From: a virus
Lineage: Duplodnaviria > Caudoviricetes
Length of the DNA stretch: 64,000 nucleotides
Virus record (IMG/VR): IMGVR_UViG_3300027804_000038
Span: 1 to 64,000 of that record
Direction: 5' to 3' (one strand)
Shown: positions 970-1,503 of the stretch, in pieces
How the letters are laid out: each line of letters opens with the position of its first letter
Numbering within the stretch: the first letter of the stretch is position 1
Made by a program: the position numbers and the translations under genes
Notes under the pieces: generated by a model
Database searches by the model: none
Told to the model about the DNA's origin: nothing
What the model saw: the letters and a program-made list of their open reading frames with translations, nothing else

Positions 970-978
970 AATATTAGT

Positions 979-1257
979 TAGGTATTCTCAACTCAAATCT
1001 TAGAATCTGTCACATGGATGTAGGTGTTTATAACCTCCATTTGTAGGTAATTCTCAACTATGTTCCTTTGCTTATTCACACTATAAATGGTGTTTATAAC
1101 CTTCATTTGTAGGGTATTCTCAACTAAGTTGTTCCAGTACAAAAAGGTGTCGCGGGTGTTTGTGACCTTCATTTGTAGGGTATTCTCAACATTCAAGGCA
1201 ATCTGCAACAAAGCGATGAAGGGTGCTTGTGACCTTCATTTGTAGGGTATTCTCAAC
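979..1257 (+). CRISPR. CRISPR-like array: truncated repeat plus four full 36-nt repeats and four unique spacers; last repeat lies inside the coding sequence of ORF 1186-1503
   Basis: Full repeats at 1023-1058, 1089-1124, 1155-1190, 1222-1257 (consensus GGTGTTTGTGACCTTCATTTGTAGGGTATTCTCAAC); truncated repeat ends at 992; spacers 993-1022, 1059-1088, 1125-1154 (30 nt) and 1191-1221 (31 nt) are unrelated to each other; no cas gene in window. Confidence 0.8.
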
Positions 1258-1503
1258 CCATCTACCTATAACTGATTCAGAATCAGATTCTTCCATAGAA
1301 AAGAAGGCAGAAATTTCGTCAATTAATTCATAATATATTCCACACCAACCATCATATTTATCATATCTAATTTGTCCATATTTATCACTCTCGGAATTAA
1401 CGAAGTATATTTTATCTCCTTTCTTAATCTGAATAAAGTCCTGATTATCCAAGTACTTAAAGATTACTTTGTCAATCTGAGATTCGGTTATTAGGTATTT
1501 CAT
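1186..1503 (-). CDS. Small paralog-family protein (MKYLITESQ...WVENTLQMKV); C-terminus encoded by an array repeat plus spacer
   Basis: 105 aa; strongly similar to 1520-1855, 2205-2522, 2545-2847, 3218-3547. Confidence 0.9.
   Translation of the reverse strand: MKYLITESQIDKVIFKYLDNQDFIQIKKGDKIYFVNSESDKYGQIRYDKYDGWCGIYYELIDEISAFFSMEESDSESVIGRWVENTLQMKVTSTLHRFVADCLEC

Follow-up and report, generated by a model that had tools for sequence, protein, structure and literature searches.

The DNA analysed here, referred to as the window, is the first 64 kb (64,000 nucleotides, nt) of IMG/VR record IMGVR_UViG_3300027804_000038. This 293,850-bp virus record, which is rated complete and has 30% GC, comes from a jumbo phage of lake fresh water. 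Its minus strand holds a run of small paralogous genes (Table 1), which have in common an 85-residue domain ending in GRWVENTLQMKV, as seen in a family alignment. One of them, open reading frame (ORF) 1186-1503, runs at its 3' end into a CRISPR-like array, which is called the focal array below. This array spans 977-1257 and consists of four full 36-nt repeats and a truncated fifth, separated by mutually unrelated spacers of 30, 30, 30 and 31 nt; the same layout had been proposed in the original prediction, made from the sequence alone, and its coordinates were confirmed. Read in the sense of the gene, repeat 1257-1222 is followed by the 31-nt spacer, by repeats alternating with the three 30-nt spacers, and finally by the truncated repeat 992-977 and an AT-rich stretch.

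The repeat adjoining the gene is itself coding. ORF 1186-1503 reads 1222-1257 as VENTLQMKVTST, the last structured residues of the protein, and the newest spacer encodes the tail. Because the 31-nt spacer throws translation out of frame, the stop codon falls within the repeat that follows. The other three units, all older, share one frame that stays open up to the last codon; it is broken by the newest insert alone. Codon by codon, the focal repeat is homologous to the C-terminus of the array-less paralogs, so that the earlier claim of an in-frame C-terminal coding sequence that is also present in genes lacking an array holds. In the AlphaFold model of the 105-aa protein (predicted local distance difference test, pLDDT, 85.8), the repeat encodes the end of helix 3, which is the last helix, and the following turn, indicating that it is real coding sequence. 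No family for the paralogs was found in Pfam or PHROGs, no homologue of the small protein in cultured phages and no match to its model among solved structures. Matches of the model in BFVD were uncharacterised phage proteins only. A 222-nt contig from a freshwater metatranscriptome matched 1384-1605 without a difference, a stretch in which gene 1520-1855 ends and gene 1186-1503 begins; DNA carry-over is possible.

A 21-nt core of the repeat was found in six copies in the window and in none of 100 shuffles, and in the whole 293,850-bp genome the focal repeat occurs at this locus only. Neighbouring repeats differ at 1, 2 and then 3 positions with distance from the gene, the stepwise drift that had been described before, while identity between neighbouring spacers is at the random level, 30-33%. 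The terminal truncated repeat, together with the bases after it, provides stop codons in all three frames. Tandem Repeats Finder missed the array, its spacers being unrelated, and Rfam gave no RNA family at the locus. CRISPR arrays in general have almost identical direct repeats, 23-55 nt long, set apart by unique spacers of even length, and this pattern is present here. Growth is likewise polarised, with decay or truncation of the distal repeat, as seen in the 1/2/3 differences and the truncated terminal copy. The usual CRISPR locus, however, does not code for protein, has a leader rich in AT and shares its genome with cas genes, and here the focal array departs from it: the first repeat is coding and the "leader" is a gene.

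Table 1. Positions of the arrays and their genes in the window (positions are those of the 64,000-nt stretch).
Feature	Position	Strand	Evidence
105-aa paralog gene carrying the focal array	1186-1503	-	ORF list, family alignment, AlphaFold
Gene-proximal repeat, putative growth end of array	1222-1257	-	3' coding end of ORF 1186-1503
Newest spacer, 31 nt, frame-shifting; source not found	1191-1221	-	
Repeat copy 2; 1 difference from gene copy	1155-1190	-	
Spacer, 30 nt; matches orthologous genes of two donor-family species	1125-1154	-	
Repeat copy 3	1089-1124	-	
Spacer, 30 nt, 27% GC; source not found	1059-1088	-	
Oldest full repeat, most diverged copy, reads VENYLQMEVINT	1023-1058	-	
Oldest spacer, 30 nt; matches Flavobacteriales genome	993-1022	-	
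Terminal truncated repeat, gene-proximal 12-16 nt kept (here 16 nt)	977-992	-	
Array-less paralog	1520-1855	-	ORF list, family alignment
Paralog with its own one-spacer array	2205-2522	-	ORF list
Repeat of second array, 3' coding end of ORF 2205-2522	2241-2276	-	
Spacer of second array, 31 nt; 31/31 to Peptidase_M28 gene of Flavobacteriales genome	2210-2240	-	
Terminal truncated repeat of second array, same sequence as 977-992	2194-2209	-	
Array-less paralog, ends 12 codons past WVENTL	2545-2847	-	ORF list, family alignment
Array-less paralog, repeat-like motif at 3266-3301	3221-3547	-	ORF list, repeat search, family alignment
Distant paralog; C-terminal half (8349-8675) is a second-type array, 36-nt repeats with 27-30-nt inserts, wholly in frame	8046-8696	+	

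A search with the family alignment retrieved 52 related viral loci. Most of these consist of the gene, the repeat, one spacer and a truncated repeat, and a few have more units. The 31 unique focal-type spacers of these loci measure 29 nt (11), 30 nt (8), 31 nt (11) and 18 nt (1); since 29, 30 and 31 nt all occur, spacer length is set by a ruler and not by the codon frame. Their mean GC of 0.42 against 0.30 for the genome agrees with the elevated spacer GC that had been noted by hand count for two of them. Between diverged phages, orthologous spacers are set apart by no more than a handful of point changes, in one case 4 in 29 nt, and such slow change means that there is no hypermutation. In three other lake metagenomes, contigs link the truncated repeat to the full repeat through different inserts of 29-32 nt, and the window's own spacers had low depth in those lake runs. 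Spacer content therefore varies among relatives and lake populations, where invariant content would have spoken against spacer capture.

These results support insertion with duplication of a 36-nt target, as first proposed, and not tandem duplication, as the process that produced the array. The 22-codon period, with its conserved 12-residue segment in a protein family, could be taken for an ordinary coding tandem repeat with a diverged linker. Duplication followed by divergence is contradicted, however, by the sister arrays, a second array type of the same gene family that is described below: there, adjacent units have 91% identity in the repeat (87.5% at third codon positions), but only 29% in the insert, where random sequence gives 27%. 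The slow change of orthologous spacers, with no sign of hypermutation, likewise argues against it. A fragment of a host CRISPR array gained by recombination fares no better, as host arrays would not hold spacers against the host's own housekeeping genes and as the repeat follows the C-termini of the array-less paralogs codon by codon. We regard an origin of either kind as scarcely credible.

The spacers were then compared with bacterial and viral DNA. Spacer 2210-2240 of the second array was found 31/31 in a Peptidase_M28 gene of the pond metagenome-assembled genome (MAG) "Flavobacteriales bacterium E1_MAG_00075" (L239 2011-2041). This was the one record matched in an exact core scan of species-representative genomes, a collection in which 3e-7 chance 31-mers are expected. 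When the same MAG, the donor MAG, was searched with window positions 960-2300, focal spacer 993-1022 matched at 28/30 (G006:C7:6378-6407), with ends exactly at the spacer edges and a chance expectation of 2e-8; in the host, the match falls where an antitoxin-like gene and a HepT toxin gene adjoin. Focal spacer 1125-1154 matched, at 25/30 and 24/30 from spacer base 1, orthologs in two donor-family species; by donor family we mean the GTDB family of E1_MAG_00075 with 236 genomes. Three variant spacers from the lake populations were found with 1-3 mismatches in 13, 2 and 1 of these 236 genomes, and reversed-pattern controls gave 0 matches. Six spacers, three from the window and three population variants, were thus traced to one bacterial family. 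Foreign protospacers, which CRISPR arrays in general have and whose absence would have counted against the original prediction, accordingly exist in host bacteria. The GC of the host contigs (0.45-0.47) is near that of the spacers of both array types (0.42-0.43), whereas the phage has 0.30. To judge by these matches, the 30-letter inserts of the arrays are copies of the chromosome of a Flavobacteriales host.

Other spacers gave no source in the collections searched. Exact-core scans returned no protospacer for spacer 1191-1221 in viral or genome collections, for the spacer of a related locus (L002) in genome, viral and metagenome collections, or for spacer 2210-2240 in metagenome contigs. Candidates for 1191-1221 in the donor family reached only 25-26/31 in non-homologous genes and were not accepted. 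The source of spacer 1059-1088 was not found on searching the donor MAG, nor did the sister-type spacers and the arrays of one relative match that MAG. No spacer matched the 1.37 Mb made up by this phage's genome and those of four related jumbo phages, or any related locus retrieved, and spacers had no second copy in the phage genomes. Cassette stacking of paralog tails, which would have undermined the original proposal, is thereby ruled out. No rival-virus spacers were found among cultured phages (searched with the focal array, 960-1270; chance matches only), in IMG/VR (searched with two spacer cores only) or in the 1.37 Mb of jumbo phage DNA. A stretch of the donor MAG (L240 2775-2800; G006:C394:7780-7801) agrees at 21/22 nt with the gene-proximal part of the phage repeat; with an E value of 0.009-0.04 per genome this is possibly chance.

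The sister type of array, represented in the window by ORF 8046-8696, is translated. Its repeat (VEE.LN.KVETT) is codon-for-codon homologous to the focal repeat, and in relatives such arrays reach nine or ten units. All but one of the 56 unique sister-type inserts are 30 nt long (the remaining one is 27 nt), and none of the 56 has a stop in the coding frame, whereas in other frames 62% are free of stops (P ~3e-12). Insert GC by codon position is 0.51/0.43/0.36, compared with 0.40/0.32/0.22 in phage genes, and the amino-acid composition of the inserts is near that of random codons. Orthologous sister arrays vary by whole units, which one array has and another lacks; those unique to one array often adjoin the gene, and distal units are common to the orthologs and degenerate. 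Strong selection for read-through of the array is shown by these data for the sister type. Among focal-type first spacers, 24 of 28 contain no in-frame stop, compared with 64% without a stop in other frames (Fisher P 0.027). A related 209-kb phage (G002:102280-159109; loci L187 and L189) carries at least seven focal-type and three translated-type arrays, spread over several gene clusters.

Selection of this kind raises the question of whether the integrations are exploited. Under a diversification reading, which has the same origin and only adds a function, integration, by whichever enzyme, would supply hypervariable C-terminal cassettes, and the arrays would be kept for the benefit of variable tails or loops, for instance in an arms race with the host or with rival phages. 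The almost uniformly 30-nt, stop-free sister inserts with their codon-position structure fit this reading, as do the excess of stop-free first spacers in the focal type, the stops that the terminal repeat copy supplies in three frames, and the three older focal units that are mutually in frame. On the other hand, focal-type inserts of 29 and 31 nt, which end translation at once, are as frequent as those of 30 nt, and focal-type spacers have no codon periodicity. Frame conservation could equally serve to avoid polarity on downstream genes. The N-terminal domain has no assigned function in Pfam, PHROGs or structure comparisons. A structure prediction for a 9-unit sister protein reached a pLDDT of 37.7, so this model is unusable and says nothing on the matter. 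We consider selected diversification a possible but doubtful addition. The corresponding earlier proposal, that protein tails are diversified in 22-codon steps, fits the sister arrays, which are wholly in frame. A related formulation, to which we give comparably tentative weight, is that the phage may use the host CRISPR integrase as a writer, which would put random 30-bp pieces of host DNA into the phage's genes while duplicating a 36-bp coding repeat, and keep read-through inserts, yielding proteins of the form (12 conserved + 10 random residues)n, of which the focal array would be a recently frame-broken member.

Which enzyme makes the insertions was approached through gene content. Cas1, Cas2, Cas13b and reverse transcriptase (PF00078) are absent from five phage genomes. 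In the donor family, Cas1 was detected in 12/81 genomes. One of its genomes, G028, encodes Cas9 (TIGR01865, 579 bits), type II Cas1 (TIGR03639, 280 bits) and Cas2; next to these genes comes an array of 36-nt repeats whose periods, 65-67, match the geometry of the phage array. The type II-C loci of the family (cas9-cas1-cas2) have 36-nt repeats and 29-31-nt spacers; the host lineage, as G028 illustrates, therefore holds II-C loci of the same repeat and spacer lengths as the phage. In Flavobacterium columnare, II-C Cas1-Cas2 extends in trans arrays that have different leaders and repeats but a common end motif, and many of the spacers acquired are self-derived (PMC8092290). For E. coli, off-target insertion by Cas1-Cas2 elsewhere in the genome has been described (Nivala et al. 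2018, cited in PMC7054753). From the II-C loci of the donor family and this literature on in-trans and off-target activity, we infer that the writer is most likely a host type II-C Cas1-Cas2 acting in trans on phage DNA.

The phage repeats also resemble CRISPR repeats in sequence. Identity to common type VI-B repeats was 23-25/36 on the plus strand and 19-22/36 in gene sense for the focal repeat, and 22-24/36, in gene sense only, for the sister repeat. A pattern made from the positions common to the phage repeat and that of Bergeyella matched at least 120 loci, and those with repeated matches were nearly all Bacteroidota arrays of the 36+30 kind, including those of Bergeyella zoohelcum and F. 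columnare, that adjoin proteins of Cas13b size. With a weight matrix of 45 host VI-B repeats, the phage repeats gave the top scores in the 294-kb genome and in exact register, a result that is partly circular for the focal plus strand. The VI-B likeness noticed in the original prediction is thus real in both sequence and register. The array also has the 36-nt repeat, ~30-nt spacer and GTTG...CAAC class of VI-B. In gene sense, the phage targets end in G[T/G]TG at 5' and CA[A/C]C at 3', and the last 9 nt of the sister repeat (ATCCACAAC) are those of the II-C repeat of a donor-family genome (G037). Host VI-B arrays have the leader upstream and a truncated last repeat that keeps its leader-side part; in gene sense the phage arrays have the same topology. 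In Bacteroidota VI-B arrays the terminal truncated repeat retains the first 20-25 nt. By eye, the leaders of many of these arrays (L080, L096, L102, L137 and others) appear to include, shortly before the first repeat, an inverted and degenerate copy of it at a distance of a few bases.

This likeness invites an RNA function, in which the array transcript would be a guide or decoy for host Cas13b or Cas9, aimed at host transcripts or DNA or titrating the effector. The match to the VI-B consensus (22-25/36, in register), the full repeat that follows every spacer on the plus strand, as in the CRISPR RNA of Cas13b, and the matches of spacers to host genes would all suit it, and phage RNA mimics of repeats are known to serve counter-defence (PMC10651486). 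However, Cas13b (NF038190) was found in 0/5 phage genomes and 0/81 donor-family genomes, while the control recovered 3/3 known carriers. The repeat RNA folds at -1.4 and -3.3 kcal/mol (z +1.1 and +0.9), no better than shuffles on either strand, whereas host VI-B repeats reach -11.2 and -12.2 kcal/mol (z -3.4 and -3.7). The focal repeat lacks the stable stem-loop of Cas13b-type repeats, and the central hairpin proposed earlier did not survive this comparison. Synonymous sites of the repeat are not more conserved than those in the rest of the gene (0.285 vs 0.263), and the spacers with an assignable coding strand are of mixed orientation relative to host genes. A search of 575 host VI-B spacers against the phages studied here gave no significant match. 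The sole RNA run with the locus covers 1384-1605; it misses the array and is neutral on array transcription. No evidence for a guide role of the focal array was seen, and the Cas13b guides or decoys envisaged in the original prediction are not supported; overall, we rate an RNA function as very unlikely. Nor was there evidence for a self-contained RNA-guided system, also suggested there, as the small protein has no known fold or family.

Taken together, we interpret the locus as probably a natural CRISPR-type array that was seeded within phage coding sequence and written by host Cas1-Cas2 with host DNA. The target would be the last 36 nt of the conserved part of the ~100-aa gene, which has the length, the end motifs and part of the sequence of Bacteroidota 36-nt CRISPR repeats. 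During infection, host chromosome fragments of 29-31 bp would integrate at the gene-side edge of this target, and every integration would duplicate the 36 nt, so that the array would grow outward from the gene. Older repeat copies would then represent earlier states of the gene's C-terminus, while the far end would decay to a truncated repeat. With each insertion the old tail of the protein is replaced or extended by a new random one of ~10 residues. The newest insert of the focal array, at 31 nt, closes the reading frame, and the three older units would therefore be untranslated fossils. In the sister type only 30-nt stop-free inserts would survive, and the whole array would be translated as 22-residue units. 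We accordingly read the focal array as a tolerated record of repeated integrations, the last of which would have truncated a formerly translated array.

Several observations weigh against this interpretation. The donor MAG itself, which is incomplete, has no detectable cas genes, Cas1 or Cas13b, and the sampled donor-family genomes with Cas1 are few, as counted above. The phage repeat has only 11-20/36 identity to three donor-family II-C repeats, weak except at the ends; it is nearer to VI-B (19-25/36), a type that the donor family did not yield. Upstream of the array a leader-like sequence is missing, because coding sequence stands in its place. The lengths of 29, 30 and 31 nt are almost equally frequent, a broader spread than in the host arrays seen. 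As a possible flanking and acquisition motif, GACG lies 5-6 nt from the gene-facing protospacer end in just 3/6 cases (L241, L270-L275; post-hoc rough P ~0.08), a small number to judge from. Finally, no phage-derived spacers were seen, though phage DNA should be plentiful in infected cells.

The missing cas genes of the donor MAG would be less surprising if the inserter were something else, namely an unrecognised integrase encoded by the phage, or if the arrays arose mainly by homologous recombination at repeats between co-infecting phages, which would reshuffle units from a pool that already existed. The 294-kb phage has many genes without a known function, and recombination at repeats would account for internal units that one orthologous array has and another lacks. 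Recombination creates no new spacers, however, and nearly every array has unique ones that are exact copies of host DNA at CRISPR-spacer length. A 36-nt target duplication combined with a 30-nt insert is the signature of Cas1-Cas2, and the five phage genomes have neither Cas1 nor reverse transcriptase. A different inserter is thus unlikely in our estimate, and host Cas1-Cas2 writing host DNA into the phage gene is the account that we prefer.

Virus-borne mini-CRISPR arrays and orphan phage arrays have reportedly been found before. Mini-arrays of viruses hold 1-4 spacers and no adaptation genes, are presumably extended by the host, are non-coding, have repeats near-identical to those of the host, and carry spacers mostly against rival viruses. 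The phage array is also short and without adaptation genes, but its repeat is codon-for-codon part of a protein, and its spacers are host-chromosomal, with no match among the viral DNA searched. Diversity-generating retroelements and shufflons likewise produce a hypervariable C-terminal protein part next to a constant remainder. Unlike these, the phage system has no reverse transcriptase, template repeat or inversion, and variation comes as whole 66-bp units of foreign DNA. Off-target insertion is said to seed arrays that are able to grow.

Other likenesses concern the mechanism. In the account given via PMC7054753, off-target "neo-CRISPR" integration by Cas1-Cas2 (Nivala, Shipman and Church 2018, Nat Microbiol 3:310) resembles the phage arrays in combining a spacer-sized insert with a repeat-length target duplication outside the CRISPR locus; here, by comparison, the site is phage coding sequence, and the insertions are natural, recurrent across a phage clade, inherited, made of host DNA and, in sister genes, translated. 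With the in-trans adaptation of VI-B by II-C in F. columnare (Hoikkala et al. 2021, PMC8092290), the array has in common 36-bp repeats, 30-bp spacers, the end motif, self-derived spacers and the bacterial order, whereas its recipient is on a phage, is coding, has no leader or effector, and belongs to a system whose donor family yielded no Cas13b. RNA anti-CRISPRs (Racrs; Camara-Wilpert et al. 2023, PMC10651486) are also phage-borne look-alikes of a host repeat, but they are non-coding RNAs that keep the repeat structure, while the repeat described here has neither a hairpin nor extra constraint at the nucleotide level. Phage orphan arrays, repeat mimics and off-target integration are thus each already known. 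Full-text searches of the literature on mini-arrays, Cas13b adaptation and off-target integration returned no array that is seeded in phage coding sequence with host chromosomal DNA and translated in sister genes.

The surroundings of the locus and the rest of the window are as follows. A gene for a calcineurin-like metallophosphoesterase (253-969, plus strand; Pfam 1e-14) lies upstream of the focal array and is convergent on it, as is the putative 3' end of a glycosyltransferase gene at 2-262 (plus strand), assigned by appearance. Both neighbours also flank the paralog cluster in two relatives (L001 and L003). The phage further carries a full-length transfer-messenger RNA gene (Rfam, 120.8 bits) and two tRNA genes (49741-50133, minus strand; 45509-45661, plus strand). 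A terminator-like hairpin between two small genes (7294-7326) has 94% identity over 33 nt to the donor MAG (G006:C153:4034-4065), and may be a shared terminator or another small capture.

If the preferred interpretation is true, the locus is natural evidence that CRISPR adaptation machinery writes outside CRISPR loci, into the attacking phage's own genes, and that it does so frequently enough to shape one gene family across a clade of lake jumbo phages. Units of immune "memory" could then turn protein-coding, which would be a new route to de novo peptide segments and hypervariable proteins. If the phage indeed uses the integrase as a writer, this would be a cassette-type protein diversification system without a known counterpart. 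The captured spacers would also link uncultured jumbo phages to their hosts, a family of freshwater Flavobacteriales, at the sequence level, a link that is otherwise hard to make.

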